From a candidate division WWE3 bacterium RAAC2_WWE3_1 (GTDB lineage: Bacteria > Patescibacteriota > WWE3 > UBA101185 > UBA10185): a stretch of 64,000 nucleotides of DNA. The DNA is taken from assembly GCA_000503835.1 (NCBI GenBank), contig CP006914.1, forward strand, positions 721,680-785,679. Direction: 5' to 3'. The position numbers and the translations under genes are program-made. This document shows positions 19,503-44,211 of the stretch, one piece after another. The notes beneath the pieces are model-generated. The model did not search any database and had not been told where the DNA came from. It saw nothing but the letters and a program-made list of their open reading frames with translations. Every line of letters begins with the position of its first letter. Positions within the stretch are counted from its first letter, which is position 1.

Positions 19503-19754
19503 ATGAAAAAACAAAAATCAGACATTCTTAACTGCTGCAAAGTACAGGCAATTGTGCCGGTAGACGGTAGAGGACAAATGGTCTTGCCCAAAGAAATTAG
19601 GGAAAAAGCGGATATCAAAGCCGGAGATAAACTTGCAATCGTTACGGGAGAACAGAACGGACAGGTTTGTTTAATTGCCCTTATAAAGGCGGAACAGTTG
19701 GAAGAAACAGTTGAAAGCATGCTTAAGGTGTTGGGAGGGCAGACGCGAAAATAA
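19503..19754 (+). CDS. AbrB/MazE/SpoVT-family (swapped-hairpin) DNA-binding protein
   Basis: VPVDGRGQMVLPKEIREKADIKAGDKL matches the AbrB-N looped-hinge helix motif. 83 aa. Confidence 0.5.
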   Translation: MKKQKSDILNCCKVQAIVPVDGRGQMVLPKEIREKADIKAGDKLAIVTGEQNGQVCLIALIKAEQLEETVESMLKVLGGQTRK

Positions 19755-20434: not shown

Positions 20435-20673
20435 AGTGTGGGTGGGGACTTACCGACACGCTTCTTTATGAAACTTGCCGTTGTTTCTCTTAGTTCCTAA
20501 ACTTTACCGCCTTGTGCCGCGAGGATAAGTGCATTCTTCACCGTCTCTGTAGGAGTGTCTGTTAGTTTATTGATAATGCAAATAGGCACTCTTGTAAGAT
20601 AGGAAATTACATTCCAGTATTGTGCGGTCGTTTCCGGTGAGACTTTTATTTAAAGTTGATAAAGAATCGTCCG

Positions 20674-20735
20674 GAGAAAAAGAAAACCGCCTTGGGGAGT
20701 TGTGAAAATCGCTTATTCACAGTCCCTTACGACGG
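20674..20735 (-). terminator. conserved about 60-nt hairpin element, copy A (terminator-like: CCGYC..GGCGG stem plus T-run on minus strand)
   Basis: About 85% identical to 23365..23424. Inner inverted repeat GTGAA-N9-TTCAC. Lies directly 3' of minus-strand gene 20772..21014. Confidence 0.4.
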
Positions 20736-20771
20736 TTTGTTGTATTACGTATTTGAAGGCGGAGACTGCAA

Positions 20772-21014
20772 TCAATATCTCGGCGGTTCCGGTAGATCCA
20801 ATGCTGTTGCAACTGCTCTAAATGCCATGTAAAGACTATCAAGCATTTGGTCCCCGGTACTTTTAACAGCTTCTTTGGGAATCTCGCTTTTGTAGAATTT
20901 TATTATTTTGCCCTTGGAATCTGTCAACAACGCTACCCCCTCCGCAATGATTATTCCCCAAATTCCCCACCGGCTTTGGATCAAGTCCCCTACTAAGAAC
21001 TTTTCTTCTGACAT
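20772..21014 (-). CDS. hypothetical small protein
   Basis: 80-aa ORF followed by a terminator-like hairpin. Confidence 0.35.
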   Translation of the reverse strand: MSEEKFLVGDLIQSRWGIWGIIIAEGVALLTDSKGKIIKFYKSEIPKEAVKSTGDQMLDSLYMAFRAVATALDLPEPPRY

Positions 21015-21199
21015 GTCACTCTCCTTTTTTGTTATGTAGAAAGTTTAGCTTGGTAGTCGGCATTCTAAGCTATCAAAGTTACCTTGTAAAGTGTGGCTTA
21101 GTGGCCCTCGTATATTATTTATTAGAGACAGGGTATCAGCATAATTCCAGGAAAAAAATTGAACCCCGCACGATTGTGATCGTTTAGGGTTCTGTTTGT

Positions 21200-21502
21200 T
21201 TATCCGACGAATCTTGTGTCTCCTTTGGACGGGATTTCCCACACTTTTTGTTCGTTGTGTACCATCTCTACTACGGAGACACGATAGCCCTTCTTTCCTA
21301 CAAATTCTTCTCCGAATTCCTTCTCCAATAGTTTCCGTACGGGGTCGTTGATTCGTGAAAGCGATCCCATCACAGTTAGAAATGCTTCGCTAGCTGTACC
21401 CGCCTCGATTATACTATTTGATTTCTCGAGAAAACGAATTTCCGGCTCGTGGTCACGCGTAGCGAAATGAGGTTGAAAGACCTTAACATTGAACAGCATC
21501 AT
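21200..21502 (-). CDS. hypothetical protein
   Basis: 100-aa ORF with no recognizable motifs. Confidence 0.3.
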   Translation of the reverse strand: MMLFNVKVFQPHFATRDHEPEIRFLEKSNSIIEAGTASEAFLTVMGSLSRINDPVRKLLEKEFGEEFVGKKGYRVSVVEMVHNEQKVWEIPSKGDTRFVG

Positions 21503-21803
21503 TTTTTCTCCTTTTCTATCTTGATAGCACGGGAATTTTATTACCCGATACCCCTCAAGTCAAGTACTACAGGATACTGGCTCTACACGACAGAGGGTGT
21601 TAGGTGGTATTTGTGTAAGCTTAGCTCTTTGCCAGTTCTTTTTTAATATCTTTTACAAAGTCGGATTTTAACAATTCCACCCAAGGTAAAAACAAGTACC
21701 AAGGTATTTGAAAAACTTTAAATTAATAGCAGAACTTAGCCAGGAGATTGGTAAACTCAAGAACAATTACTTTGACTCCTGCGCCGATACAGCCAGCCAA
21801 TGT

Positions 21804-22724
21804 TTAAAAAGCCCTATTTACCAGATAAACGCCTATCGTAATTGCCAATATTGCAAACATTCTCTGCGCAAGTGTCTTTCTTGATATATCCTCTTTTGAT
21901 ATTCTTGGAAAAAGAATTGTAAGTATTATTCCAAACAAAAACACAAAAAAAGGCTGGAGACCATTGATTATCCATATCAGTGTCACCGGAGCAAGTATGG
22001 ACGCATAATTGAAGGAAATTTTAGCAACTATATTTACAATTTCGTTTGTAATATTTACTCCCAGAACTTGAGTTTTATTTGTTTTTAATACACTAATAAA
22101 TCCATCTCTGTAGCTTTTGATAAAGATGAGTAAAAATAATCCGAATAATCCAAATCCAATATATTCCCAGAAACTTGTTATAAAGAAGTCTGTTTCCACT
22201 GCAAAATATTTAAAGAATATAAAATTAAGAGAATACAGAAGACTTGATAGTACCATCAAGAGGAATACATCCCACTTCATATGAATTTTTTTAATATCCG
22301 CTAGGTTGAGCGAAATGAAAACGGAAGATACAAGAATTATTATCCCTCCAAGGATTTGATTGATATCCAAAACCTCTCCTAGAAAGATATAACCAAGAAT
22401 AAAGGAGAAAACAGGAATCATTTGGAACAGTGGAACCGTTAGCGATGCGTCATCTTTATCAAGAGCGTAGAAGTAGGGTAAGGTTGCCAATAGATAAAAA
22501 GACCCGTTTACAACAATTAACAAGTAGCTAAGGTTGAATTGTTGAAGGACTACCGGGTGAATTATTGCTATTACCGGAAGGAGGAGTACGGAAACACTGG
22601 CTGAGAATATCATAACCGAACCAACAGCACCCTTGTTAAAGAACTTAGTTAGGAGATATTTATCTATATGGTTTGTAACGCTCCAAAGTATTGGGGGTAA
22701 GAGTGCCATTAAAAACCAATCCAT
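21804..22724 (-). CDS. EamA/DMT-family transporter
   Basis: 306 aa, 10 TM helices in two 5-TM halves. The HIDKYLLTKFF region is typical of EamA. Confidence 0.6.
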   Translation of the reverse strand: MDWFLMALLPPILWSVTNHIDKYLLTKFFNKGAVGSVMIFSASVSVLLLPVIAIIHPVVLQQFNLSYLLIVVNGSFYLLATLPYFYALDKDDASLTVPLFQMIPVFSFILGYIFLGEVLDINQILGGIIILVSSVFISLNLADIKKIHMKWDVFLLMVLSSLLYSLNFIFFKYFAVETDFFITSFWEYIGFGLFGLFLLIFIKSYRDGFISVLKTNKTQVLGVNITNEIVNIVAKISFNYASILAPVTLIWIINGLQPFFVFLFGIILTILFPRISKEDISRKTLAQRMFAILAITIGVYLVNRAF

Positions 22725-22790
22725 ACGGAGATTATATCAGGGTTCGATTGTTATCCGGTGGGTTTTTTTGTTATGTTAAGTAAGATTTGT
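22725..22790 (-). promoter_or_regulatory. repeated promoter module, copy 1 (TGATATAATCTCCGT immediately 5' of the ATG; leaderless-type)
   Basis: Shares AGATTATATCA..GTTATC..TTAAGTAAGATTTG with 23273..23320. A TATAAT -10 lies 8-9 nt from the start codon. Confidence 0.35.
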
Positions 22791-22894
22791 CTCCCCCTCG
22801 CCGACCGTAACCTTAACATAACTAAGTATTTTATGCGAACCATTAAGATATTTGAGGATTTTAAGCTAGTACAAGGATTGAGGGAAGAAATAAA

Positions 22895-23272
22895 TTATTT
22901 CAAATTTCCATCAGAAAAATAATGCGATTCATCCTGAAACCTATTTGGCCAGAAGTCCAACTGTTCTCCTGGAATATTTAGTCTTTTACCAAAATCAATT
23001 ATCGGTTTCCAAGAGTTAGCATGAGGTTTTACATCAAAAACCTTGTTTTTAAAAAGTACAATTAGCCTCTCATCATTATAAAGGTGGGCATACCACGTCC
23101 CCTCGCTCTTCATATTTTTTTGAATCTTATTAATCACTTCCTGTAACTGAGAATCGTCAATTTCAATTCCATAGATACGCCACGACCCGTCTTGTTTTTT
23201 AGCGAATATTTTAAAAGAGTTTATAAATTCCTGGTCAATAAATTCCTGGTCAATAATAATTCCATGGTACAT
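22895..23272 (-). CDS. hypothetical protein
   Basis: 125 aa. Contains an internal 15-nt tandem duplication (IDQEF IDQEF). Confidence 0.4.
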   Translation of the reverse strand: MYHGIIIDQEFIDQEFINSFKIFAKKQDGSWRIYGIEIDDSQLQEVINKIQKNMKSEGTWYAHLYNDERLIVLFKNKVFDVKPHANSWKPIIDFGKRLNIPGEQLDFWPNRFQDESHYFSDGNLK

Positions 23273-23320
23273 ACGAAGATTATATCATCAGTTATCTTAA
23301 GTAAGATTTGGCTCACCATA
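23273..23320 (-). promoter_or_regulatory. repeated promoter module, copy 2 (TGATATAATCTTCGT immediately 5' of the ATG)
   Basis: Near-identical core to copy 1 at 22725..22790. Confidence 0.35.
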
Positions 23321-23364
23321 CACAACTATATCCGAGTATTATGAAAATGCTGGTGGGCTGTTAA

Positions 23365-23424
23365 GAGAAAAAATACCGCCTTGGGGAACTGTGAAAATTG
23401 CTTATTCACGTTTCCTTACGGCGG
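23365..23424 (-). terminator. conserved about 60-nt hairpin element, copy B (terminator-like)
   Basis: On the minus strand CCGCC..(GTGAATAAGCAATTTTCAC)..GGCGG followed by TATTTTTTCTC. Directly 3' of gene 23453..23743. Confidence 0.4.
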
Positions 23425-23452
23425 AGTGAGCTTAAATTTTATTTAAAGCATT

Positions 23453-23743
23453 TTATGGGAACAAGGCAAGGATAAGAGTTCCAAATAGGTGAAATGCGGC
23501 CAGCGCTGCAAACGAAAGAAACACAAGACCTGCTGCCACATACCCCCGTCCTGTGTGTTTGAGGAAAATTACCCCAATAATCACAGCGCAGGAACCATAG
23601 ATCGTGCTCAGCACAATTTCAAGCGGTTTAGATACAGCATATAGACCGATGTAGCCCAAAAAATCATAGATTACAGCAAGGTAAAATATTACCGCTACGG
23701 TGACTAATAGCCACATCAGATTTTTTTGTGCCTTAATAAACAT
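23453..23743 (-). CDS. small membrane protein (3 TM), hypothetical
   Basis: 96-aa hydrophobic ORF. Confidence 0.4.
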   Translation of the reverse strand: MFIKAQKNLMWLLVTVAVIFYLAVIYDFLGYIGLYAVSKPLEIVLSTIYGSCAVIIGVIFLKHTGRGYVAAGLVFLSFAALAAFHLFGTLILALFP

Positions 23744-24050
23744 GATTTTCTCTCCTTTTATCTATACAGTCCGCAAAGAATTTGTGCGGTTTATGAACGA
23801 TTTGTAGAGATTATAGCTTAGAATGGGTGAATAGTCAACCTATAGTGTAGATATTGGCTCGCTAGTTGGGGCGCTTTTCGTACTATGGAAATAGAGAGTT
23901 TTGTTTATGAAGAGGCTTTAGAAGTTTTGAGTTAGTAATTACCCCACACCTTCACACACTTTACTTTTTGATAAAAAAAGAGCCCTCTATTTTCATAGTG
24001 AGCTCTGTTTGCCGTAATGGCGATAAATATTTCTTTTGACGTTCTTGTCT

Positions 24051-24251
24051 CTATTCGGCTACAACGAGTTCGTATTCGCCGCAATCGCAGTGAGCAGTTC
24101 TGGAACCGAGGTTTCCCGATGTTTCGCGAGACAGGTGCACATGGCTACCATGACAATATGGGCAATCGCCCACGATGATGCAAAAACCGCCAACCTTCAA
24201 TTTCATCCCAACTCTTGCTTTTGCTGTAGGGAGATTTTTTTCTTCTGGCAT
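24051..24251 (-). CDS. small Cys/His-rich protein, hypothetical
   Basis: 66 aa with GDCPYCHGSHVH and HCDCGEYE motifs. Sits in a locally GC-rich (about 50%) segment. Confidence 0.3.
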   Translation of the reverse strand: MPEEKNLPTAKARVGMKLKVGGFCIIVGDCPYCHGSHVHLSRETSGNLGSRTAHCDCGEYELVVAE

Positions 24252-24260
24252 TTCTTCCTC

Positions 24261-24656
24261 CTAGCTCACAACGTAGTAGTAGGGCATGCCGCCTGGAAGT
24301 GCTGACCACATTTCGCGCGGAAGACAGGGTTTGACCTTGCCAATGGCGATGCCAAGCTGGAACAGTTGCTCCATAGTTTGGTGCATTCCCGTCCATTGGT
24401 TACCGTTTCGGTCGAAGCAAGCGTTCAGGAAAGACATACCTCCACCACCAGAAACCTTGAAATCATCAGGCAGTCCGGCGAGCATTGCTTCGATGTCTTT
24501 GCGGTGACTCTCGAGTCGCTGTGGGTTGAATCCGACCGTGCATGTAATGCCTTCGGCATTGACATGGTTCGTTGTGTCTTCGCCGTCCTTGAACATGCAG
24601 TCGTTAAAGACCGCGACGACCTTCTCTGCTGTTAAAGCATTCTGGTCCATTTTCAC
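24261..24656 (-). CDS. hypothetical protein (GC-rich foreign-looking segment)
   Basis: 131-aa ORF with GGAGAGG RBS. Local GC is clearly above the window average. Confidence 0.4.
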   Translation of the reverse strand: MKMDQNALTAEKVVAVFNDCMFKDGEDTTNHVNAEGITCTVGFNPQRLESHRKDIEAMLAGLPDDFKVSGGGGMSFLNACFDRNGNQWTGMHQTMEQLFQLGIAIGKVKPCLPREMWSALPGGMPYYYVVS

Positions 24657-24792
24657 CTCTCTCCTTTGTTATTGGTGGATATTGATAGCGGTATTATAAG
24701 GTAAAATCGTGGTTTAATCAACCTGTAGTGTATGATACATGTTCTGAAACATAGACACGGTCTTTGTAGAAAGAGATGTAATAGGCTAATAG

Positions 24793-25275
24793 TTTCAGGA
24801 GTTTACAGGTGAAAGAAACGAGCTTATAGACCAAAGGAAGAGGCTAAACACAAAGGACAGTAGCTTTTATGAGAAAACTGCAACACTTTACGACGTTGCC
24901 CAAGAGGGTATAGCGATTTATGAAGGTTCAAAAGAATTTGGAAAGCGCAGACTTATAAAGCTTATGTTCACAGATATGGTTCTAAATAGTGGGAACCTAC
25001 CTTTTGCCTATACAAAGCCTTATAAGACATTAAGAAAAGCTGTAGAAGAAACTAACGGTTCGAAAATAGCTGAAAATCCTACCTTTATGAAAAATATTTT
25101 CGAACTCAAGGATTTCAGCGAAGTGAAAGCAAAAATGGAGCTTTTGGGCGTCGATTGTTCTAATTGGCTCCGAGCTGTGCAGGAACTTAGAACCGTTATT
25201 TTAAGCGGTCGGCACTCCTACGAAATGGAGGCGGCTGTCAAAAAGCTCCGAGGAGAAGAACCGTTCGATGAGTAA
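24793..25275 (+). pseudogene. 5'-truncated gene fragment, copy 1 of a duplicated unknown gene (island boundary repeat)
   Basis: Open frame from stop 24790..24792 with no start until an internal Met at 24964. About 75% nt identity to 34726..35148. Translation ...ERNELIDQRKRLNTKD..FTDMVLNSGNLPFAYTKPYKTLRKAVEETNGSK... Confidence 0.5.
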
Positions 25276-25427
25276 ACGATGAGGTGGATGGAGAGGGTTA
25301 AGCCTGTAGCCAGTTCACGCTAAAAGGCGAAATTTTAGTGAATTGAATACTGTTTATTGTTCTTATTCACTAAACTTCAAAAGTGAACTGGAAAGGACCT
25401 TCAACGCCCTTTCCAGTTAAAAAGAGG

Positions 25428-28307
25428 TTATTCTGGAAAGCTGTACTTTTGTTCTCGTTTTTGGAATGCCTCTTGACCTCCCTCGAGAATTTCACAGACA
25501 TGCTGCCGAATCCCTTTGCGATATAAAATCGCTGGCTCTTCTGTAGCCTCTAACTCAAAGGTATTTTCAAGCGCACCAGAAACGTACTCAAAGCGAAACT
25601 TCTTATTTTCTCTCCCCACCTCCTGTCCGGACTGATTCGCAACAACTGTTTCTTCCGCGTCCGCACCGACAACAAGATTCGGGTTATGAGTGACAATGAC
25701 AATTTGCCTCTGCAATTTTTTCTTTTTCAAGAAATCAACCAAGTCATCATATACAGATCGATTATCAAGATCGTCCTCTGGCTGATCGAGAAGAATAGGC
25801 CACTCTTCGTCACTTAAATTAATAAGCAGCTGTAGAAGTACTAATCCCTTTTTGCCCGGTGACATTTTGTCGAGAGAGTCATTTTTATAGAAAATCCTGA
25901 AGTCGAGATAAAAATAGTTTTCCAAAAGCTTGGCAACAGCATCTTTTGGCTGTCGGTTCTTGACGGTGTTTATCGTCCCCTCGATAAGCCCCTCAAATAC
26001 TGTCGTCATATTGGCCAAATGTTTGGCCGGATCGTACTTGTAAACGAATTCATCACCCCACTCTGCCTCTACAATGACGCGCTTGAGGTCATTTTTATTT
26101 ATATATTCTTTAACCACGTCTGAGTTGAAGACATCGTCGTTAAAACTGACATGTACTCCAAGGGTGATTTCACCGAATTTACTTTCAAATTTCTTGAACT
26201 CATTCCGTAAGCCTTCATGCTTAGCAACTATCAATTTATATGAATCAATGACCCCGTCAGCCTTCTTTTTATAGGAGGCCTTCTTCGTCTTGAGATTATT
26301 TCTCTTGATGGCGATCTCATTTAATTTCTGTTGTTCTTTTTTAATAGCGTCGGTTTTTTCTTGAAGCTCCGATTGTAACTTAACTTTAGCTAGCAAAGGT
26401 GCTAACTCCGCTTTGATTTTGATTAGCTCCGCGTTGTAAGTCGTGATCTTTGTGTCGATAGCCGTAACCAAATTTGTGGTAGCAGATTTTACATTCGGAG
26501 CAAATGAATCCACTACTTTTAGTTCGATTTTAAACTTGGCTTTGATTTCAGCATCGTTGAGATATGCTTCATATTCGTCTGCCATTGTCCGCAAACCATC
26601 GACTTGGGATACCAAGCTGGTGTTGAGGTTTTTAATCGTCTTTTTATCTTCTTCGAGATTTGAAACTTGAGTAGTAATGTCCTTTTCTTTTGTTACCAAG
26701 TCCTCGTACTGCTTAAGTTGCTCTTCCGATAAGCCTGATTTTGCTTTGATATCATCGGCTTGTTTTTGGAGGGTTTGTATATAGCTCTCAATACCTTTTT
26801 CATCACCGGTCTGCTTCAGTTCTTCTTCGGTTTTCTTAATATCGTCCCGATCAGAAAATAGCTCACCAATCTCGGTTGGGATAGACTTAACCTTAACCTT
26901 TATTTCTTGCACGGTCTCCTCGTATTTTTCTCTGATAGTCGGTTCTTGAAGAATTACATTCAAAACAAACTCATTAAGTGCCTCACGGCTTTTAATGTTT
27001 GCTTCTGAAAGAGTGTTTAGATATTTCTGCGGTATATAAAGAATTTTTCGCTCCTTAGACTCATCTTCTGTGGCTCCATCCGGCACTCTTAGCAAAGTAC
27101 GCTGACCATCTTTCCACGTTACTTCAAAATTGAAATCAACTGATGCATCAAAGTCGTATTTTACCGGTACCCCACTATCAGCTGTCCGGTTCTTAACTTC
27201 TTCTCGGTCAATCGTTTTGGCCATGTAATAAAGCAATAGAGACTTGCCGGTTGATTTGCCTCCAATAATCGTAGTTAGATTTTGATTGATCTCAATTGAC
27301 TCACTGCCAAATTTTGCATCGCTGGTATTATCAAGAAAGCGGACTTTATCGATAACAAAATAAGATTTTTTCTCTTCGGGTTTTTGAGGGCCGACAAAGA
27401 TACGTTGCTCTGGTTCGTAAATAATCTGCTTCAATCCCTCAAATGTAGGGTCTGCTTTAATCCATAAGAAATTATCATCCTGATCGCATCGGCCAAGGTC
27501 TCTAAGTGACCTTGCGTCTGAACTAATATGGGCGCAAAACTTTGATGTAAGTGTTGCATTGGTCTTAATATATTCAGAAACAGCAACGGAAGATTGATTG
27601 TGCTGTGACTGTAAAAGATTTACTTTCTGATGATTGAAAATATCCGCGAGATGAGTTCTGTCTGTGCTTGTCCTTTCCTGAAATAACCCATTGCTACTAT
27701 TACAGTGAGGATAGATCACGATGCTGTTATTCTTTTTTGCCTCATTTAAGATATCCTTTATATCCGCAGTCGTTGTAGTAAGCACCCCATCTACATTCGT
27801 TCGATTGTTAATATTGAATTTCGTTAAAAAAGCATGAATCCCAGCCGAAAAAGTTTCTTTTCCATAAAGCTTCTCCCGGAAAAATAAAAGCATGTGAATG
27901 CCTTGGCAGTTGATTTCAACACCCGGTATCACTTTGCACCGAGATTGTTTTGCATATTCTATAAAAGAATCGAGCAAGCAATCATCAAAATAGTTATGAT
28001 CCGTAATGCCAATGCATTCAAGTTCGGGATTAAAGACGTCTAAAAATGCAAAATAACTTCTGACGTAATTAACACATCGATCATTCTTGGGAATGGCCGT
28101 ATCGTTAAAATAAGCCTTCGAGTCATACAGCAGAGCATTCTCTTCGCCACCAACTTTAGCAATGTATTGTTGCCAACCGGTAGGATTCGCTAGTTTTAGC
28201 TCTTCGGAATATTGACTAAGGGATATGTAGCCATCGTCCAATATGGTTTGCGTTTGCAAGTCCCATTTTCGCCATATTGAACCTTTTGTATATGGAAAGT
28301 TGCTCAT
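25428..28307 (-). CDS. PHP-like phosphoesterase domain fused to a Rad50/SbcC-like coiled-coil ABC ATPase (candidate defence nuclease/ATPase)
   Basis: N-terminal PHP-like motifs (KWDLQTQT, IGITDHNYF, VIPGVEI, IVIYPHC, HISSDAR) with His to Gln/Arg substitutions. Walker A IIGGKSTGKS, about 350-aa coiled-coil, signature-like MSPGKKGLVLLQLL, Walker B ILLDQPEDDLD, H-loop IVTHNP. Confidence 0.7.
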   Translation of the reverse strand: MSNFPYTKGSIWRKWDLQTQTILDDGYISLSQYSEELKLANPTGWQQYIAKVGGEENALLYDSKAYFNDTAIPKNDRCVNYVRSYFAFLDVFNPELECIGITDHNYFDDCLLDSFIEYAKQSRCKVIPGVEINCQGIHMLLFFREKLYGKETFSAGIHAFLTKFNINNRTNVDGVLTTTTADIKDILNEAKKNNSIVIYPHCNSSNGLFQERTSTDRTHLADIFNHQKVNLLQSQHNQSSVAVSEYIKTNATLTSKFCAHISSDARSLRDLGRCDQDDNFLWIKADPTFEGLKQIIYEPEQRIFVGPQKPEEKKSYFVIDKVRFLDNTSDAKFGSESIEINQNLTTIIGGKSTGKSLLLYYMAKTIDREEVKNRTADSGVPVKYDFDASVDFNFEVTWKDGQRTLLRVPDGATEDESKERKILYIPQKYLNTLSEANIKSREALNEFVLNVILQEPTIREKYEETVQEIKVKVKSIPTEIGELFSDRDDIKKTEEELKQTGDEKGIESYIQTLQKQADDIKAKSGLSEEQLKQYEDLVTKEKDITTQVSNLEEDKKTIKNLNTSLVSQVDGLRTMADEYEAYLNDAEIKAKFKIELKVVDSFAPNVKSATTNLVTAIDTKITTYNAELIKIKAELAPLLAKVKLQSELQEKTDAIKKEQQKLNEIAIKRNNLKTKKASYKKKADGVIDSYKLIVAKHEGLRNEFKKFESKFGEITLGVHVSFNDDVFNSDVVKEYINKNDLKRVIVEAEWGDEFVYKYDPAKHLANMTTVFEGLIEGTINTVKNRQPKDAVAKLLENYFYLDFRIFYKNDSLDKMSPGKKGLVLLQLLINLSDEEWPILLDQPEDDLDNRSVYDDLVDFLKKKKLQRQIVIVTHNPNLVVGADAEETVVANQSGQEVGRENKKFRFEYVSGALENTFELEATEEPAILYRKGIRQHVCEILEGGQEAFQKREQKYSFPE

Positions 28308-28311
28308 AAGC

Positions 28312-29184
28312 TTAATTCGATTTTTGGTTAAAATATATTACCTTATCTATTTTCTTAAAAAGAAAATTCAAGAATGACAACAGGTCCAGAGCCTCTTCTC
28401 GGTTAATAGGCCAATCAAGTGCTGGTTCATGGGCTTGGGGGTTACGAATAGCTCGCATTAGACCTACCGAAAGATGCATAACACCCTCTTGTTCATTCTT
28501 TTCAGTTCTTGTCTGTTGTGCATTCAGCTTAAGCGTACCGGTAAGCGCAAGAGCGTTTTCCATTAATCGCGATCCATACTCAGACATCTGAGATTTTTCT
28601 TGAATTTCTTTGTCATAAACCTTGCAACATTCAAAGACCGCATGAAAATAATTTCTCTCGGTAAATAGTTTTCGAGCATGCTGGGAAATTTTATTGTGAA
28701 ATTTACGGTCATCAAAAATTTTGGCGTTCTCCGGTATAGCCTTCGATAAAGATGTGATTTTCTCTCCGGACTTCCGTAGCTTCCCATCATCGCCAACCAG
28801 CAAACCGTAAAACCTTAAAATTTGATTCACTTGTTTACAAATAACCTCATGTTTTTCTGGAGCAGAAAAATACTCCTGTGGATCACAAAGTTGTTGAATC
28901 AGCGTCGCGATGTTAAATGTGCCGTAGGTCTGTTTCTGCATTGCTTCCAGAGCAGCATAAACGAACCGCCACTTCGTGCCGCCATCATGGGATATCTCTG
29001 GAAAGCCTGCTTTACGAAAAAGCTCGGATATTTCTGACCCGGTATAGTTGTCTCCGATTATTTTTGCCAGTGCTTCAAGGGCAGGCAACTTAAATGGTTC
29101 TAATTCCATATTCGCTACTTTAGTAATCCACAACCGAACCGCTTCCGTTTTCGTAAGATTTTCGGTATAATGGAAATATAGCAC
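28312..29184 (-). CDS. HEPN-domain protein of the Ymh/TIGR02391 type (Rx4HxE motif)
   Basis: C-terminal NYFHAVFECCKVYDKEIQ...EQEGVMHLSVGLMRAIRNPQAHEP...EALDLLSFLNFL matches the Hypoth_Ymh/TIGR02391 HEPN pattern. 4-bp gap to the downstream ATPase gene, so operonic. Confidence 0.6.
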   Translation of the reverse strand: MLYFHYTENLTKTEAVRLWITKVANMELEPFKLPALEALAKIIGDNYTGSEISELFRKAGFPEISHDGGTKWRFVYAALEAMQKQTYGTFNIATLIQQLCDPQEYFSAPEKHEVICKQVNQILRFYGLLVGDDGKLRKSGEKITSLSKAIPENAKIFDDRKFHNKISQHARKLFTERNYFHAVFECCKVYDKEIQEKSQMSEYGSRLMENALALTGTLKLNAQQTRTEKNEQEGVMHLSVGLMRAIRNPQAHEPALDWPINREEALDLLSFLNFLFKKIDKVIYFNQKSN

Positions 29185-29211
29185 TTTCGGCTTTAAACAT
29201 CAATCAAACTT

Positions 29212-30906
29212 ATGGGTATTCCAGTCACTAAACGACAAAAAGAAGTTTTAGACTTCGTAAAAACCTTCATTGATGATCAGGGCTACTCTCCGACTCTGGA
29301 AGAAATAAAGAAAAAATTACACCTCTCTGCTGTATCAACGGTTCACCAGCATATTAACGCCCTCATTGATAAAGGTTATATAAAAAAGTTCGACAATCTT
29401 GCTCGAGCTATTGAAGTCAATGGCCGGAGGGAAGAAAGTGTAAATAATTTTATAGAAATCCCTCTACTAGGCATGATCGCGGCTGGTAAGCCAATAGAGG
29501 CTATAGAAATACCAGAAACTATTTCCGTGCCTAAAGATTTTACATCAGGCCATGCCCGACACTATGCATTAAAAGTTCGCGGAGATAGTATGCAAGACGA
29601 CGGAATCTTTGATAGTGATACTGTGATTGTCCGCGAACAACCAGTGGTTGATAATGGTGAGATCGGCGTGGCTATTATAAATGGAAACGAAGCTACTCTT
29701 AAAAGAATCTACAAAGAAAAAAATGGTATCAGACTTCAACCAGCCAATGAAAGTTATAAACCTATACTCACCAAGAATGTCGAAATTAGAGGCAAAGTCA
29801 CGGGCGTATTACGAAACAGGTTCGATTCTTTACCTGAACCAGCCCAGCTCCCCTTATTCGTCTATCCTCAAAAAAGCGAACAACGGTTACTTCAAATACA
29901 TAACCGAAGGTTTCTGGGTAACAAAACTAAACTTCTTGGTTTTATAGGAGACATTGTAGCTGACAAATGTCGTGGCTATTATAGCTTTTGTGATATCTTT
30001 GCGGGTACCGGAGTTGTTGGACATTATTTCAATAGGCCAGATACCAAAATCATCTCGAATGATATTCTCGATAGTAGCTTTGTATCTCTTCAATGCTGGC
30101 TGAACACCAAAAATTACAACGAAGAAAAGATATCAAACATCATCGGACATTTAAATAACCTTCAACCGAAGAAAGAGAATTACGTATCGGAAATTTTTGG
30201 CGGCTCTTATTTTACTAAGGAAAATGCACAGAAAATCGGAGCTGTCAGAGAAAAAATAGAAAAACTACATAAAGATGGGGAGATCGACCAGGAAGAGAAA
30301 AATATTCTGCTGACTTCATTAGTTTACGCAATTGATAAAGTGGCTAATACTGTCGGCCATTATGAGACCTATAGAAAAAAACTCGATACAATACAGAGTT
30401 TGCGACTTTTAATGCCAGGCATTGATGTGAAAAACAATCTTAATAATGAAGTTCATCAAAAAGACGCAAATCAACTGATTAGAGAAATCGCGTGTGATGT
30501 GCTTTATATTGATCCACCATACAACTCAAGACAGTATGGAGATTCCTATCACCTACTAGAGAATATTGTTACCTGGGAGAAACCAAAAGTTGAGGGTATA
30601 GGAAAAAAAATGGTAGACCGCGAACATCTAAAAAGCCGTTACTGTTTAAAGGGTGCAGTTCACGCTTTCGAAGATTTGATACAGAACGCAAAAACAAAGC
30701 ATATTCTGGTCTCCTATAACAACACCGGCGAGAAAATGAACGAACGCTCCAACGCTAAAATACCCGATCACAGGATTATTGAGATTTTGAAAGAGCGAGG
30801 AGAGGTTGAGGTCTTCGAGCGAGAATATAAAGCATTCACTACCGGTAAAAGCGAAGCACCGGGTCATACCGAGCGCGTATTTTACTGCAAAGTTACAGGT
30901 AAATAA
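29212..30906 (+). CDS. LexA-like repressor (wHTH plus S24 autopeptidase) fused to a Dam-family (D12 class) N6-adenine DNA methyltransferase
   Basis: Residues 1-200: HTH, AAG cleavage site, GDSM catalytic Ser and LKR Lys of LexA/S24. Residues about 225-564: RRFLGNKTKLL, FCDIFAGTGVVG (motif I) and DPPY (motif IV) of Dam/D12 MTases. Single uninterrupted ORF. Confidence 0.75.
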   Translation: MGIPVTKRQKEVLDFVKTFIDDQGYSPTLEEIKKKLHLSAVSTVHQHINALIDKGYIKKFDNLARAIEVNGRREESVNNFIEIPLLGMIAAGKPIEAIEIPETISVPKDFTSGHARHYALKVRGDSMQDDGIFDSDTVIVREQPVVDNGEIGVAIINGNEATLKRIYKEKNGIRLQPANESYKPILTKNVEIRGKVTGVLRNRFDSLPEPAQLPLFVYPQKSEQRLLQIHNRRFLGNKTKLLGFIGDIVADKCRGYYSFCDIFAGTGVVGHYFNRPDTKIISNDILDSSFVSLQCWLNTKNYNEEKISNIIGHLNNLQPKKENYVSEIFGGSYFTKENAQKIGAVREKIEKLHKDGEIDQEEKNILLTSLVYAIDKVANTVGHYETYRKKLDTIQSLRLLMPGIDVKNNLNNEVHQKDANQLIREIACDVLYIDPPYNSRQYGDSYHLLENIVTWEKPKVEGIGKKMVDREHLKSRYCLKGAVHAFEDLIQNAKTKHILVSYNNTGEKMNERSNAKIPDHRIIEILKERGEVEVFEREYKAFTTGKSEAPGHTERVFYCKVTGK

Positions 30907-30913
30907 TAAATTT

Positions 30914-32731
30914 ATGAAAAAAATTTGGAGCATATCAACAACGGTTAGAAACCCAGAGAGAATCAGGAACTTCCTGGTCGCCCTAAAACCTTTAGATGGT
31001 GAGGTCTGGAATCACGATACTCAAAGGCGATTCCAAATACTCCTCATTCAGCACAAATTATACGGTGCTGGGAATAAACAATTTACAAACAATCTCTCTC
31101 GGGAGCATAGAGAATTGTTGGAAAATTCAGAGACTCTTACCTACGAACAAGCCGAAGAAATTCTAAATGCGAGAAATTATGTCGGTGCTGGTGATATGCG
31201 AGGCCGACAATCATTCAATCCGATTAAAAAGATGGGACTGGCAAAAATAGATGACCAGGGTCGGATTCGGATAACTTCTTTTGGAGAATACCTGCTGAAA
31301 GAAGATGCCGATCTTGGTGAAATGTTCTTTAAGAGTTTTCTTAAATGGCAATTACCGAATCCTCTTTCAAGAGATTTTAAGGTTGAAGATGGATATGACA
31401 TTAAACCTTTCATCGCGACGCTCCACCTCATCAACAAAGTGAATAAAATTTGTCGCAAGCGCGGACTTACTGAGAAAGGGCTATCTCAAGCTGAGTTTGA
31501 TATCTTTGTTCCTACACTTATTAGCTATCAAAATATTCAGGCTCAAGCTCGTAAGGTACTAGAATTTCGAACAGGTCTCGAGAGACTTGCCAATGAGCGA
31601 GAAAAACAAACGTACACCCATAGTTATGTAAGCGAAAACTTTGAAGATTTTGAAAATATGGAACACACCAAGGACTATGGCGACAATATTCGTCGCTATT
31701 TTCGAATGACTAGGTACTTCCATTTGCGTGGCAACGGTTATTATATTGATCTTGAGCCAAGGAGAAGTATTGAAATTCAAAAGATATTGAAGACGGACAA
31801 CGGCTCAAGCCAAGATTTTACTGCGGAAGCATATATTGATTACATCTCTGACATTAACCTGCCAATTCTGCCTTGGGAAACTCAAACAGAGTTGGTGCGA
31901 ATTAGTAACTATACAGCTGATGATATCAGGCAGTATCAAAACCAACTCAGAGAACAAAGAATACAAATACCTGATTTTGAATTTAAGAACACCGATCGTC
32001 TTTCGGTTGAACAACTAAAAGCCTATGTCGGTGAATTGAGAGATTACCGCAGAACTCTTCAAGAAACCGAGGATCACTTTGTATCTCAGAATGTCGACAA
32101 GGTCAGAGAATATATAGATCGGCTACGCAACATTCGACAATCCAAAGAGAAAAAGAGCATTGAGCTTGAACATTTAGCTACTCTAGCTTTGAATGCTATT
32201 AATGACGCACTTGCAATAAAGCCAAACTATCCAGTGGGAGACGATAACCAGCCAACTTTTACAGCACCAGCAAACAAACCAGACATTGAATGTTTCTACG
32301 ACGCATTTAATGGCGTATGCGAAGTAACCATGCTTACTAACCGCGCTCAGTGGATGCAAGAAGGTCAGCCAGTAATGAGACATCTAAGGGACTTCGAGGA
32401 TGCAAATAATAGTAAAGATACTTACTGTTTGTTTGTCGCTCCAACTTTGCATAGAGACACCGTAAATACTTTCTGGACAGCTGTTAAATATGAGTATGAA
32501 GGACGTCGACAAAAGATCGTACCGTTGACGATTAATGAACTCGCAAAATTACTAGAAGCGATTATTGCGATGAAGGACCGTGGTCAGCGACTTGATCACC
32601 GGCAACTCATGAATCTTTACGATTCCATAATCAACTTGACCAGCACAGCGCCTAGCTCTGATGTCTGGACTTCGCAAATATCCGGAGTCGTCGAACAGTG
32701 GTCTCGAGAAATTTTATCAGCACAAGTATGA
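30914..32731 (+). CDS. Type IIS restriction/nicking endonuclease, AlwI/N.BstNBI (RE_AlwI) family
   Basis: N-terminal WSISTTVRNPERI..GEVW, central RRYFRMTRYFHLRGNGYYIDLEP, PDIECFYDAFNGVCEVT, YCLFVAPT and C-terminal IVPLTINELAKLL. These co-linear blocks match N.BstNBI/AlwI family proteins as I recall them. Start set at ATG 30914 just after the upstream stop; the ORF track's 30806 start overlaps the upstream gene. Confidence 0.7.
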   Translation: MKKIWSISTTVRNPERIRNFLVALKPLDGEVWNHDTQRRFQILLIQHKLYGAGNKQFTNNLSREHRELLENSETLTYEQAEEILNARNYVGAGDMRGRQSFNPIKKMGLAKIDDQGRIRITSFGEYLLKEDADLGEMFFKSFLKWQLPNPLSRDFKVEDGYDIKPFIATLHLINKVNKICRKRGLTEKGLSQAEFDIFVPTLISYQNIQAQARKVLEFRTGLERLANEREKQTYTHSYVSENFEDFENMEHTKDYGDNIRRYFRMTRYFHLRGNGYYIDLEPRRSIEIQKILKTDNGSSQDFTAEAYIDYISDINLPILPWETQTELVRISNYTADDIRQYQNQLREQRIQIPDFEFKNTDRLSVEQLKAYVGELRDYRRTLQETEDHFVSQNVDKVREYIDRLRNIRQSKEKKSIELEHLATLALNAINDALAIKPNYPVGDDNQPTFTAPANKPDIECFYDAFNGVCEVTMLTNRAQWMQEGQPVMRHLRDFEDANNSKDTYCLFVAPTLHRDTVNTFWTAVKYEYEGRRQKIVPLTINELAKLLEAIIAMKDRGQRLDHRQLMNLYDSIINLTSTAPSSDVWTSQISGVVEQWSREILSAQV

Positions 32732-33498
32732 AGCTAAACACCATTCACAAAGGCGATTGCCGGACAATATTAAATAAGGACATCCCGGAAGAAAGCGTGG
32801 ATTTGATTTTTGCCGATCCTCCATACAACCTGTCAGGGAATGGCCTTAAATGGGAAGGAAATAAAACAGGTGGAGACTGGTTCATGGTTAACGAAAAGTG
32901 GGACCGGATGACCGAAGCCGAGTATTTAAAATTTACCAAAGAATGGATAGAGGCCTGCAAAAGAGTTTTAAAACCGACTGGCAGTATTTATATTTCCTGC
33001 ACATATCATAATATTGGTGAACTAATCATGGTTCTTAAGGCTCTTGGATTTATTCCAAGGAATATTATTACCTGGCACAAGAATAACGCTATGCCAAGCA
33101 TGACTCGACGCACCTTTACTCATTCATGCGAATACATACTATTTTTCTCAAAGGGTAAGAAATGGGTATTTAATTATTCAGAGATCAAAAAAATAAATCC
33201 AGAGAGAGCAAAAGATGGGTCCGAAAAACAAATGCGTGATCTCTGGATTATGCCTATTGTACAGGGCAAAGAACGAGTGAAGGATAAAACCGGTCGCTCT
33301 GCTCATCCAACACAAAAACCAGAGAATCTACTTGAAAGAGTTATCCTGGCTAGCAGCAACAAAGGAGATATTGTCCTTGATCCTTTTCTCGGAAGTGGAA
33401 CTACTGCAGTAGTAGCTAAACGTTTGGGTAGGAAATGGGTAGGTATTGAAACTGAAGATAAGTATGTAAAAGTCGCTGAAAAACGCCTCAATAATTAG
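32728..33498 (+). CDS. beta-class N6-adenine/N4-cytosine DNA methyltransferase (N6_N4_Mtase)
   Basis: DPPY (motif IV) precedes FLGSGTT (motif I), which is the beta permutation. ATG 32728 overlaps the endonuclease stop (ATGA), suggesting translational coupling. Confidence 0.8.
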   Translation: MKLNTIHKGDCRTILNKDIPEESVDLIFADPPYNLSGNGLKWEGNKTGGDWFMVNEKWDRMTEAEYLKFTKEWIEACKRVLKPTGSIYISCTYHNIGELIMVLKALGFIPRNIITWHKNNAMPSMTRRTFTHSCEYILFFSKGKKWVFNYSEIKKINPERAKDGSEKQMRDLWIMPIVQGKERVKDKTGRSAHPTQKPENLLERVILASSNKGDIVLDPFLGSGTTAVVAKRLGRKWVGIETEDKYVKVAEKRLNN

Positions 33499-33516
33499 AT
33501 ATTCACAAATAAGCAT

Positions 33517-33546
33517 TGACGGTCCATTCTCGGACCAGCTATAATA
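33517..33546 (+). promoter_or_regulatory. strong sigma-70-like promoter TTGACG-18-TATAAT
   Basis: TTGACG at 33517 and TATAAT at 33541. The spacer contains the palindrome GGTCC..GGACC. Confidence 0.5.
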
Positions 33547-33552
33547 AATACA

Positions 33553-33690
33553 TCAGAGTTAGTTGGTCTGACGGCGACTGAGTTCTCAGTCTAAACGCGA
33601 CGGGACTACGACTACTGTTATCGGCACTGCCATTTGGCGTGTGCATTTGATGACAAGAGTCGTGGTCCCGTTTTTGTTTTCCAGCTCGCT
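33553..33690 (+). ncRNA. candidate small RNA (about 135 nt) bounded by a promoter and an intrinsic terminator
   Basis: Downstream of the promoter there is no ORF with an RBS. Long hairpin GGGACTACGACT..AGTCGTGGTCCC followed by GTTTTTGTTTT at 33601..33690. Confidence 0.4.
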
Positions 33691-33791
33691 CTGCTAATAA
33701 ATAATTTCCCTCTGAGGCTAAGGTGCCTCGATTAGACTGACGAATTTGATTAGACAGATAAAGGCTAGTTCCCGGCAGGGGCCAGCCTTTT

Positions 33792-33992
33792 ATGTTGCCC
33801 CAAGAAGCAATTCAAGAATTCAAAGAATTATACGAGAAACGCTACGGCGTAAAGCTCTCCGACGAGGAGGCCGCTTTGCGTGCCAACAATCTTTTTAAAC
33901 TCTACAAAATCACCTACATGGGTGAGCCAAACATCGATGACTTTAAAGAAAAAGTAGTGAAAAGCCATGACCTACAACAAAACCACAATTAG
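33792..33992 (+). CDS. hypothetical small protein
   Basis: 66-aa ORF. Upstream tandem GATTAGAC(A) direct repeats at 33745..33771. Confidence 0.3.
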   Translation: MLPQEAIQEFKELYEKRYGVKLSDEEAALRANNLFKLYKITYMGEPNIDDFKEKVVKSHDLQQNHN

Positions 33993-34275
33993 CGAAACCC
34001 AGTTCTATCCGGTTAAACCCCAGGACGGCCTCCTAGGGTTTGTTTTGTTTGTCCTGGACGGGAAATTCTGGATGGGATCAGTGGCCGTGTTTAGTCGGCC
34101 GGACGGCCGATACCGGTTGGTTTACCCGACACGAAAAGTTGGCGGCCAAAATATTAATGTCTTTCATCCAATTAACCAAGAGGCAGGCCAACAGGTCGAA
34201 GCGGCCGTCAGTGAAAAAGTAGCTGAAATATTTAGTGAATCATGTGAACAAACCGAACCGGACAACACGTGGTAA
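33967..34275 (+). CDS. SpoVG-like protein
   Basis: FYPVKPQDGLLGFVLFVLDGKFWMGSVAVFSRPDGRYRLVYPTRKV...VFHPINQEAGQQVEAAV parallels the SpoVG fold (..ASITLD..F.V....G..VAMPS......HPIN...R..I). Confidence 0.45.
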   Translation: MTYNKTTISETQFYPVKPQDGLLGFVLFVLDGKFWMGSVAVFSRPDGRYRLVYPTRKVGGQNINVFHPINQEAGQQVEAAVSEKVAEIFSESCEQTEPDNTW

Positions 34276-34675
34276 AAGCTTAAATTTCTTTCCCGCTCCT
34301 CACCTAGTCTTCGATGACGACCGGCTGAAGAATTCGCTCACACATGCCGAGCGAGATTTTCTCATGGTAATCTGCCATCTCTCAAACCGCTATGCAAATG
34401 CAGACGGCTGGTTTTGGCATACCGATCGATTGTTTACGACGCGCGAAGATAAAGAGCGCGGGTTCGCTTCGTTCGGATTAAGTAGATCAACATGCCGACG
34501 TGTGAGAAAGAAGCTTGCCAGCCTTGGACTTATAGAAATCAGACCGGGAACATCGGAACGCGGCCGGTGGGCCGGAACTTTGTATCGCCTTAACCCAAAA
34601 CTTCTCCAATCCACCGAGGTTCATAATGAAGCACGGTCAGGCGTCTTGGAGAATCACGGCCCAGCTCCACCATGA
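34235..34675 (+). CDS. HTH-domain protein (replication-initiator/DnaD-like candidate), GC-rich
   Basis: FGLSRSTCRRVRKKLASLGLIE helix-turn-helix. Local GC is elevated. The start may be internal because the 5' end overlaps the upstream gene. Confidence 0.35.
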   Translation: MNHVNKPNRTTRGKSLNFFPAPHLVFDDDRLKNSLTHAERDFLMVICHLSNRYANADGWFWHTDRLFTTREDKERGFASFGLSRSTCRRVRKKLASLGLIEIRPGTSERGRWAGTLYRLNPKLLQSTEVHNEARSGVLENHGPAPP

Positions 34676-34725
34676 AGCACTTAGTAATAAAGATTGAGTA
34701 AGAAAGAAATAATAATAAAGCTTAA

Positions 34726-35148
34726 ATAAAGCTCGATGGAAAAATAACCGAGGATTTTTATCAAGAAAAGTACCAAGAGTTTACAGCTGAAAGAAATGAA
34801 CTCATTGTCCAAAGAAAGAAGCTAAACACAAAGGATAATAGTTTCTATGAGAAAACTACCGCTCTTTATGATGTAGCTCAAAAAGGTATTGAGATTTACG
34901 AGGAATCTAAAGAGTTAAGGAAACGCAGATTAATACGGCTTATATTTACAGACATGACCCTTAATAGTGGAATATTATATTTTGCCTACATAAAGCCATA
35001 TATGATATTAAGAAAAGCGGTTGAAGAAACTAATGGTTCGAAAGTAGCTGAAGACGAGACTTTTATGGAAAATATTTTCGAACTTAAGGATTTTAGCGGT
35101 GTTAAAGCAGAAATGGAGCCTTTGGGCATTGATTGTTCTTTATGGCTC
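34726..35148 (+). pseudogene. gene fragment, copy 2 of the duplicated unknown gene, truncated at both ends and abutting the tRNA-Asn 3' end
   Basis: No start codon. About 75% identical to 24793..25150. Identity to copy 1 ends at TGGCTCC, exactly where the minus-strand tRNA 3' terminus (TGGCTCCCCCGGG) begins. Confidence 0.5.
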
Positions 35149-35183
35149 CCCCGGGTGGATTCGAACCACCAACCTGCCGATTA

Positions 35184-35752
35184 CATGTGATCCGTTTGTT
35201 TCCAAACAGCATGGACTATCTCATCATCTTTTGTGTCACCACATTAAGATGTCGGGCGCTCTAGGGTGTAATCACCTAGTCTCTGCACCTTTTCATGTGT
35301 ACCCGGCAAGGCGTACAAATGAACTTGGCTCAGGATTACCATGTCCGTCGATTAATCGACAGAGTTAGGTTTCCCTGAGTTCACCCAATTTTTCAACCGT
35401 CGTTTCCGGCGGAAGCTGCACTACTCCGTTATGAATTTCCTTGTGACAGTTCGAACAGACTAAAACACATTTTTCAAGCTCTCTTTTAATTGTTTCCCAA
35501 CTTCTCGTTAGTCCGCGACTGGCGAGCCCGAAGTCTTTTTTCTGCCCATCTTTATGGTGAAACTCTAATGCCGCAAAGCATTTGTTATAACCACAAAGGT
35601 TGCATTTATTTCCAAGGTACTCGACTGCCAGCATTTTCAGTTTTCGTCTTCTCTTAGAGACAGCGAGACTGAGATAGCGGGGTCTGTCTGAGTACCTTCG
35701 GGTTTCCTTCGTCACAAGATATTTATATAACTTTCATAACGGTTGTCAACGT
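35184..35752 (-). other. tRNA intron (group I-like, inferred) carrying an HNH endonuclease ORF
   Basis: Lies between the two tRNA-Asn exons. Contains CDS 35365..35715 on the same strand. The secondary structure was not verified. Confidence 0.45.
35365..35715 (-). CDS. HNH homing endonuclease
   Basis: CNLCGYNKC...EFHHKDGQKKD...CSNCHKEIHNG. Canonical HNH motif with zinc-binding Cys pairs. 116 aa. Confidence 0.7.
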   Translation of the reverse strand: MTKETRRYSDRPRYLSLAVSKRRRKLKMLAVEYLGNKCNLCGYNKCFAALEFHHKDGQKKDFGLASRGLTRSWETIKRELEKCVLVCSNCHKEIHNGVVQLPPETTVEKLGELRET

Positions 35753-35857
35753 ACAGTCGGACGCTCTACCATTGAGCTACAGGGGAACGAAGCACAGAAA
35801 TACTAACATAACCGCTTCGGGGCTTCAATAATCGATTACTTTTCTATTTAGTGGATT

Positions 35858-42460: not shown

Positions 42461-42536
42461 GGGTGATTAGCTCAATTGGCAGAGCTCTCGTCTTATACAC
42501 GAGCGGTTCCTGGTTCGATCCCAGGATCACCCACCA
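42461..42536 (+). tRNA. tRNA-Ile(UAU)
   Basis: Acceptor GGGTGAT/ATCACCC, D-arm GCTC-AATTGGCA-GAGC, anticodon stem CTCGT/ACGAG with loop CTTATAC (TAT), T-arm CCTGG-TTCGATC-CCAGG, A plus CCA. Confidence 0.7.
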
Positions 42537-44134: not shown

Positions 44135-44211
44135 GCCAACATAGCTCAGTCGGTAAGAGCGGTCGTTTCATAAGCGACAGGTCCCAGGTTCGATCCCTGG
44201 TGTTGGCACCA
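44135..44211 (+). tRNA. tRNA-Met(CAU) elongator, or tRNA-Ile2 (lysidine); not distinguishable from sequence
   Basis: Acceptor GCCAACA/TGTTGGC, D-arm GCTC-AGTCGGTA-GAGC, anticodon loop TTCATAA, T-arm CCAGG-TTCGATC-CCTGG, A plus CCA. Confidence 0.75.

Follow-up and report, generated by a model that had tools for sequence, protein, structure and literature searches.

The sole asparagine transfer RNA (tRNA) gene of the WWE3 bacterium RAAC2_WWE3_1, a tRNA-Asn(GUU), is split by a subgroup IA1 group I intron inserted between tRNA positions 35 and 36. The intron is predicted to splice out and leave a normal tRNA, and it carries, in the loop of its first helix (P1), an HNH gene that likely serves homing. 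We put the probability of this reading at about 0.92. The locus lies on the minus strand of a 64,000-nucleotide (nt) stretch of contig CP006914.1 (assembly GCA_000503835.1, positions 721,680 to 785,679), called the window below and used for all coordinates. A sequence-only reading of the window had proposed this split tRNA-Asn(GUU), and its proposal is upheld jointly by the intron-aware mode of ARAGORN (ARAGORN -i), by Rfam, by an intron-less allele on a metagenome contig (L157) and by helix counts over related introns. The locus and its class are already published, and the element itself is not new. Nakagawa et al. (2026, mSystems; PMC13011429) have described patescibacterial tRNA-Asn(GUU) genes that carry group I introns at 35/36, and their Table S3 lists GCA_000503835.1 (class WWE3) with a 569-nt Asn(GTT) intron at 35/36. 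The 399 nt stored for this entry are identical to the window, comprising the same 5' exon and the first 365 nt of the intron. The class was first listed as 'Asn.4Ug' by Williams (2020; bioRxiv 10.1101/2020.01.27.920355). The split gene described here is an independent confirmation and not a discovery.

Read along the minus strand, the gene consists of TCCCCTGTAGCTCAATGGTAGAGCGTCCGACTGT (35786..35753), 569 nt of intron, and TAATCGGCAGGTTGGTGGTTCGAATCCACCCGGGGGAGCCA (35183..35143). ARAGORN -i reports the region as tRNA-Asn(gtt) i(35,569), that is, with a 569-nt intron behind position 35. The joined exons form a 75-nt cloverleaf in the ARAGORN output, and the U1-A72 acceptor pair, the anticodon loop CTGTTAA and the encoded CCA that had been read from the letters are all present in it, together with G73. 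Its single flaw lies at the top of the anticodon stem, where U27 and C43 do not pair. The gene is missed at this locus by ARAGORN in default mode and by the Rfam tRNA model. The group I end rule invoked in the sequence-only reading is obeyed, as the last base of the 5' exon is U (35753) and the last base of the intron is G (35184). The insertion point is unambiguous because the intron begins with A and ends with G, both unlike the adjoining exon bases. The tRNA-intron region is 99.5–100% identical across six independent assemblies, and the flanking gene for a DUF1189 protein occurs with identical sequence on WWE3 contigs of GCA_003525165.1 and GCA_000999505.1. A plus-strand open reading frame (ORF) at 35099..35368 (..PGWIRTTNL..) had been dismissed as a mere antisense translation, and it does run antisense to the 3' exon and the ribozyme core. 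Table S2 of Nakagawa et al. gives the tRNA-Asn genes of GCA_000503835.1 as 0 by tRNAscan-SE, 1 by ARAGORN and 1 by tFind (PMC13011429). By these counts the split gene is the only tRNA-Asn of the complete genome, which carries the identical sequence, and an intact copy elsewhere, the case that had been named as refuting the reading, is excluded for that genome.

Alleles without the intron fix the boundaries independently. Metagenome contigs were scanned for the predicted spliced junction, and this recovered 105 tRNA-Asn genes that have no insertion and share the 25-nt anticodon arm. Among the contigs is L157, whose intron-less tRNA-Asn is identical to the predicted spliced product at 75 of 75 positions, including the U27-C43 mismatch, and which lies in the same gene neighbourhood (upstream flank 77% identical over 2 kb). 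Three further intron-less contigs, L129, L154 and L176, differ from the spliced tRNA by one base and have the upstream gene in common. The alignments of all four to the window stop at 35753 and resume at 35183, so the two tRNA halves are one gene split by an insertion; the comparison with intron-less relatives that had been suggested as a check thus fixes the boundaries at 35753|35183. In another relative, L004 (10860-11643, corresponding to window 35143-35850), the flanks are only 83–90% identical to the window, whereas only 3 of 758 nt differ in the tRNA-intron region (99.6% identity). One of the three differences destroys the GTG start codon of the HNH gene, one creates an ATG two codons downstream, and one changes A72 of the acceptor stem to G. 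As a separate observation, the Logan contig SRR3989297_303464 (L006) ends exactly at window position 35753, the last base of the 5' exon. Such an end would be expected if the sample contained alleles both with and without the intron and the assembly graph forked at this point.

Evidence for the ribozyme comes from a covariance model and from comparative counts. The Rfam family Intron_gpI (RF00028) matches 35472..35192 of the minus strand over the full model (1-253) with 90.3 bits, above its gathering score of 50 (E ~1e-23), as the Infernal/Rfam check proposed for the intron had anticipated. No Rfam family besides Intron_gpI matches the region, even at E up to 1. Related introns were fetched via the HNH protein family (80 loci), and a structure drawn by hand from the window copy was counted on an alignment of 37 distinct introns with the ORF removed. 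Standard pairs occupy 93.9% of the P1-P9 cells, compared with 32–42% when the partners are slid by 1–3 columns, and both sides have changed in 27 of the 49 pairs, compared with 10–15 in the slid controls. The covariation score is 0.49, the slid controls reach at most 0.107, and none of 500 shuffles attains 0.49. The structure derives from one of the aligned sequences and is therefore somewhat favoured in these counts, although the margin is large nonetheless. Four to six compensatory pairs are present in each of P2, P3, P4, P8 and P9, and every core helix is intact in the window copy. The folding of P1-P9, which had been suggested as a check, is borne out by these pairings.

The internal guide sequence (IGS), GCAGC, stands directly upstream of P2 in 63 of 63 introns examined. 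Its base G35419 forms a wobble with U35753 at the splice site, and this pair is U.G in 37/37 aligned introns. The base immediately 5' of the IGS covaries with the first base of the intron (G-C in 35, A-U in 18, C-G in 2 and G-U in 3 of the 63 introns; G-C in 21, A-U in 12 and C-G in 1 of the 37-intron alignment). Given the GCAGC guide, the invariant U.G and the covarying next pair, the insertion is placed at 35/36 and not at 33/34 of a 'tRNA-Thr'. At the other end the terminal guanosine (omega-G) is G35184; it is invariant in the 37-intron alignment, and the boundary is set by the empty-site alleles. A hairpin at 35276..35265 appears to be the kind of extra element that marks subgroup IA and is a candidate P7.1. 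The identical sequence has been assigned to IA1 with subgroup covariance models (Table S5, PMC13011429). Two other pairing schemes were considered and rejected. A candidate IGS, GCAGUCG at about 35627..35621, would give a 7-bp match to the exon; its letters belong to the ORF and encode conserved AVE residues, and the 63 introns share GCAGC instead. The first hairpin (P2) of the Rfam alignment contains several non-pairs and also falls inside the ORF, and it was replaced by the comparative P1 and P2. The coordinates of all features are collected in Table 1.

Table 1. Features of the split tRNA-Asn(GUU) locus, its intron and the adjoining region (window coordinates), and positions of free-standing HNH genes and tRNA genes at three related loci.
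Feature	Position	Strand	Description and evidence
5' exon of tRNA-Asn(GUU)	35753..35786	minus	tRNA positions 1-35, ends with U35, the -1 U of the splice site; ARAGORN -i, end of L157 alignment
3' exon of tRNA-Asn(GUU)	35143..35183	minus	tRNA positions 36-76 including encoded CCA; ARAGORN, L157 and L129 alignments resume at 35183
Group I intron, subgroup IA1	35184..35752	minus	569 nt, omega-G 35184; Rfam RF00028, helix counts, Tables S3 and S5 of PMC13011429
P1, 3' strand	35415..35421	minus	exon CUGU pairs with the IGS GCAGC (35419..35415), intron +1 and +2 with the GU before it
P2 hairpin CCGCCG-GAAA-CGACGG	35397..35412	minus	98.6% of cells paired, 5/6 pairs compensatory
P3	35388-35382 / 35258-35252	minus	98.8% paired, compensatory changes; Rfam alignment
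P4	35378-35374 / 35334-35330	minus	98.4% paired, compensatory changes; inside P3
P5	35370-35368 / 35340-35338	minus	inside P3; Rfam alignment
P6	35329-35327 / 35289-35287	minus	99.1% paired, compensatory changes; inside P3
P7	5' strand 35281-35277, 3' strand 35218-35214	minus	invariant in 37/37
P7.1-like hairpin GGTG-ATTA-CACC	35276..35265	minus	between P7 5' strand and P3 3' strand; read from sequence
P8	35250-35246 / 35230-35226	minus	4/5 pairs compensatory
P9 hairpin, GAAA loop	35209-35203 / 35198-35192	minus	6/7 pairs compensatory
HNH endonuclease ORF, 116 amino acids	35365..35715	minus	GTG start 35715, TAA 35367..35365; in P1 loop; PHROG E 2e-27, dN/dS
Possible intron-internal promoter	35722..35749	minus	TTGACA (35749-35744), 16 nt, TATAAA (35727-35722), 6 nt, GTG; read from sequence
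384-bp direct repeat, tRNA-proximal copy	34766..35149		opens with the final 7 nt of the tRNA (GGAGCCA, minus strand); blastn
384-bp direct repeat, distal copy	24788..25171		ends TGGCTCC, a 7-nt remnant of the tRNA 3' end; blastn
Free-standing HNH and tRNA, L043	HNH 515-817; tRNA c2-405		
Free-standing HNH and tRNA, L070	ORF 757-1071; tRNA c118-472		
Free-standing HNH and tRNA, L073	1034-1354; tRNA c574-908		

The intron had been described as carrying an intact HNH ORF on its own strand, and both the open frame and the protein family are confirmed. Ten PHROG HNH families match the predicted product, the best with E 2e-27, and a PDB profile search with the HNH family recovers, over the motif, McrA (6ghc) and, with E 3.4e-5, the endonuclease (En) domain of 6me0, a group II intron reverse transcriptase. 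No variation occurs in the HH...N...H motif or in three of the four cysteines that make up two CxxC pairs; in 29 sequences C41, H53, H54, C87, N89, C90 and H91 do not vary and C38 is nearly invariant. Two homologs of the ORF carry a precomputed match to Pfam PF01844, and an NCBIfam search of the ORF gave no useful match. Translation was assigned to the GTG at 35715 because the 27 N-terminal residues that follow are conserved as protein across homologs; the alternative start, ATG 35634, was rejected since these 27 codons lie upstream of it. The last 19 codons, VVQLPPETTVEKLGELRET, are at the same time the IGS, P2, P3, P4 and the 5' strand of P5, so the conserved 'QLP' and 'GELRE' tails of the homologs are ribozyme sequence read as protein. 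Outside this overlap, the ratio of nonsynonymous to synonymous substitution rates (dN/dS) comes to 0.04 in the comparison with L007, and 83 pairs from the family have a median of 0.085, so a protein function has been maintained. The ORF is, by its predicted product, an HNH nuclease under strong purifying selection.

The 5' end of the intron reads ACG-TTGACA-16 nt-TATAAA-6 nt-GTG and resembles a promoter placed directly ahead of the HNH gene. A promoter and terminator scan listed nothing on the minus strand; the scan demands T at position 6 of the -10 hexamer, hence TATAAA is not in its output. Among 66 related introns, 39 have a hexamer with at most one mismatch to TATAAT upstream of the start codon, mostly about 6 nt away, and in 23 of these 39 it is preceded by a TG extension. 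The spacing of the hexamer would start transcription at or near the start codon and suggests a leaderless HNH mRNA. Introns with such a 5' end include those of L010, L013, L019, L036, L038, L050, L066, L074 and others. The higher-GC copies from outside Patescibacteria are without such a hexamer, and some have a Shine-Dalgarno sequence instead.

On the preferred reading, the precursor would fold back on the guide GU-GCAGC, 330 nt downstream, which would pair with exon CUGU and intron bases +1 and +2 to form P1 with the U.G wobble at the splice site. Free guanosine would then attack behind U35, after which the terminal G (35184) would take the same P7 pocket and the exons would be ligated to the normal 75-nt tRNA-Asn. 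The HNH protein would likely cut uninterrupted tRNA-Asn genes near CTGT|TAA, and repair would copy the intron into them. We infer the splicing of the window copy, and likewise the nuclease activity of the HNH product, its target and the mode of expression of its ORF. In vitro, Nakagawa et al. have demonstrated exact self-splicing of two introns that have no ORF, with omega-G changed to C as the control; splicing at 35/36 was demonstrated for GCA_016700035.1, whose homolog is ORF-less (PMC13011429). Homing is consistent with the existence of intron-less alleles that carry the same 25-nt target at 105 metagenome loci and with purifying selection on the ORF. Some results weigh against this reading of the locus. 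In the window copy P1 closes a loop of about 330 nt with only 6 bp and has an A-C mismatch at exon position -5; a P10 pairing with the 3' exon was looked for and none convincing could be drawn; and the ORF scores 15.1 bits against Pfam PF01844, below the cut-off of 21.4.

The most serious competing explanation accepts splicing and denies homing: the HNH protein would have another role, as a maturase or a general nuclease, and the intron would be a fixed, vertically inherited passenger. It is favoured by the position of the intron in the genome's only tRNA-Asn, which leaves no target in the cell, by an intron GC content that tracks that of the host flanks across lineages and suggests long residence, and by the overlap of the ORF with the IGS through P5, which couples protein and RNA physically; strong purifying selection would fit any function. 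We nevertheless regard it as unlikely. Intron-less alleles with the identical target sequence coexist in related organisms, and no group I intron is known to us to have an HNH protein as its maturase. Moreover, many ORF-less versions splice or persist without the protein (PMC13011429; L070, L073).

Two further explanations dispute the intron itself. The locus could be a dead gene, with an inactive intron or two unrelated tRNA remnants and a functional tRNA-Asn elsewhere, as the failure of default ARAGORN and the Rfam tRNA model to see it and the U27-C43 mismatch might suggest. Such decay is very improbable, since the halves equal the uninterrupted L157 allele at 75/75 positions with the same mismatch, the core helices are all intact, the complete genome with the identical sequence has no second tRNA-Asn, and the locus is 99.5–100% conserved in the six assemblies. 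Least probable of all is removal of the insert by proteins as an archaeal-type bulge-helix-bulge intron, or its being a group II intron. Protein-spliced tRNA introns do share the anticodon-loop position, although the insertion is at 35/36 and not at the canonical 37/38. Against both of these types stand the U.G wobble, the omega-G and a covarying P3-P9, with Intron_gpI as the sole Rfam match, and protein-free, guanosine-dependent splicing in vitro has already been shown for a homolog (PMC13011429).

Several known systems resemble the preferred arrangement, a self-splicing tRNA-Asn intron with a homing endonuclease gene (HEG), in part. The tRNA-fMet(CAU) intron of Synechocystis PCC 6803 encodes I-Ssp6803I, a PD-(D/E)XK enzyme, and is inserted at 33/34. 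It is likewise a group I intron in the anticodon loop of a bacterial tRNA with a HEG, and it differs in its 33/34 insertion, in a PD-(D/E)XK instead of an HNH enzyme and in its cyanobacterial host. Group I introns with HNH enzymes are known from phages, e.g., I-HmuI of Bacillus phage SPO1 and I-TevIII of phage RB3. These share with the window copy a subgroup IA ribozyme and an intron-encoded HNH enzyme, but they reside in protein-coding phage genes, and their proteins are larger and have extra DNA-binding modules, whereas the window encodes a minimal 116-residue HNH protein with a basic N-terminal segment within a cellular tRNA gene. The introns of Azoarcus tRNA-Ile and cyanobacterial tRNA-Leu(UAA) differ in belonging to IC3, in having no ORF and in their insertion sites (34/35 in tRNA-Leu). 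Closest are the tRNA-Asn 35/36 introns of Patescibacteria, which agree with the element in host gene, in insertion site, in subgroup (IA1) and in the HNH gene and do not differ from it (PMC13011429). Nakagawa et al. have classed nearly all Patescibacteria tRNA introns as IA and have reported HNH genes, as PF01844, in four tRNA-Asn introns; in their survey of complete genomes HEG-bearing IA introns at 35/36 occur only in Patescibacteria, and more are expected from draft genomes (PMC13011429). Beyond that work, the present analysis adds where the ORF lies, in the loop of P1 with its end running across the IGS as far as P5, together with a candidate promoter within the intron, alleles with an empty site among the same neighbouring genes and an HNH-bearing form outside Patescibacteria.

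The breadth of the family was examined by searching one genome per species for relatives of the HNH protein. At least 586 species-representative genomes encode such a relative, and the best 80 of them were characterised. Of these 80 loci, 77 have a tRNA-Asn split at 35/36 and 74 have the HNH gene inside the intron; 69 pass a strict 35/36 test, and the figure of 77 is reached by adding ARAGORN -i calls for loci with anticodon-stem mismatches. At L030 and L045 the ribozyme is present and the contig end cuts the locus, and L051 is cut earlier. ARAGORN -i calls about half of the relatives tRNA-Thr(tgt) with a 33/34 insertion, and a few His, Tyr, Ser or Leu. These calls were rejected as boundary artefacts, Thr being a 2-nt shift, and the miscalled loci all fit Asn 35/36 with CTGT|...G|TAA. 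The same misnaming as tRNA-Thr has been reported by Nakagawa et al. (PMC13011429). The sequence-only reading had called self-splicing tRNA introns with homing endonucleases rare in bacteria. That statement calls for a qualification: in complete genomes 12 of 333 tRNA introns have a HEG (PMC13011429), yet at least 586 species genomes encode a relative of the HNH protein.

By record name, the best 80 loci comprise 40 from Patescibacteria, 30 with other names and 10 without a name. Several records named as Gammaproteobacteria, Burkholderiales or Limisphaerales may be mislabelled or mis-binned, because their GC is low and their tRNA exons match those of Patescibacteria records. The loci of Acidobacteriota (the 5.5-Mb chromosome L072 and the 2.9-Mb contig L076), Omnitrophota and Elusimicrobiota look genuine, since their tRNA exons are typical of the lineage and the GC of the intron tracks that of the flanks, as it follows the host flanks across lineages. 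Three loci, L043, L070 and L073, have an ORF-less 35/36 intron (260–331 nt, a single group I match per locus) and a free-standing HNH homolog a few hundred bases from the tRNA-Asn on the opposite strand. They resemble the arrangements of free-standing endonuclease and intron that have been proposed as a route to mobile introns. Taken more broadly, the window copy could belong to a single, very large family of IA introns with HNH genes, which is still mobile and targets CTGT|TAA of tRNA-Asn(GUU). The family would extend beyond Patescibacteria, the tail of its nuclease would be the guide and core of the ribozyme, expression would be leaderless in many Patescibacteria, and the free-standing copies would record the union of intron and nuclease. 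We hold this composite view tentatively, at a little under even odds.

The same tRNA had also been named as the boundary of an island, and this is supported by the variable DNA on its 3' side and by a direct repeat. The upstream gene order is kept in five relatives (L004, L129, L154, L157 and L176), and downstream of the CCA all of them differ. In L154 about 730 nt separate the tRNA from a homolog of the methyltransferase gene at 19754..20434, compared with 14.7 kb in the window. The two copies of a 384-bp repeat (78% identical by blastn) bracket about 9.6 kb (25172-34765). By Pfam, the genes in this segment specify a restriction enzyme of the AlwI type, two DNA methyltransferases, of which one has a LexA-like domain fused to it, a protein of the Ymh family and an SMC-like ATPase of 959 residues. 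Each repeat copy contains a small ORF (34954..35190, 78 amino acids; 24964..25275, 103 amino acids), of which the proximal one enters the tRNA in antisense. No integrase domain was found among the ORFs examined in 19754..35142, and no stretch of 18 nt or more from the tRNA 3' end recurs as a direct repeat in the window. On the variable DNA and the 384-bp repeat, the tRNA-Asn probably marks the island boundary.

Two side observations concern other tRNA genes of the window. A tRNA-Ile with anticodon TAT (UAU) lies at 42461-42536 on the plus strand, where ARAGORN and the Rfam tRNA model (65.9 bits) agree; tRNA-Ile(UAU) is an uncommon isoacceptor in bacteria. About 97 nt (window ~44223-44319) are shared by the window and L001 and are missing in the assembly L002 (LCGD01000004.1), which is identical apart from this. 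They lie shortly after the tRNA-Met at 44135-44211, the second of two tandem tRNA-Met(CAT) genes, and the difference between L002 and the window could be an assembly difference or a small indel.

For annotation, standard tools see no tRNA-Asn in such genomes, which lowers estimates of their completeness, and intron-aware tools often misname the gene tRNA-Thr owing to the 2-nt shift. Modest leads for work on homing endonucleases are offered by the cross-phylum HNH-bearing form, the overlap of ORF and ribozyme, the possible leaderless expression and the free-standing HNH genes beside ORF-less introns. If true, the spread across phyla would contradict the published view from complete genomes, in which HEG-bearing 35/36 introns are confined to Patescibacteria and horizontal transfer is limited. 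For the organism, an essential single-copy tRNA gene relies on a ribozyme within a minimal genome, a point that has already been made and tested in print.

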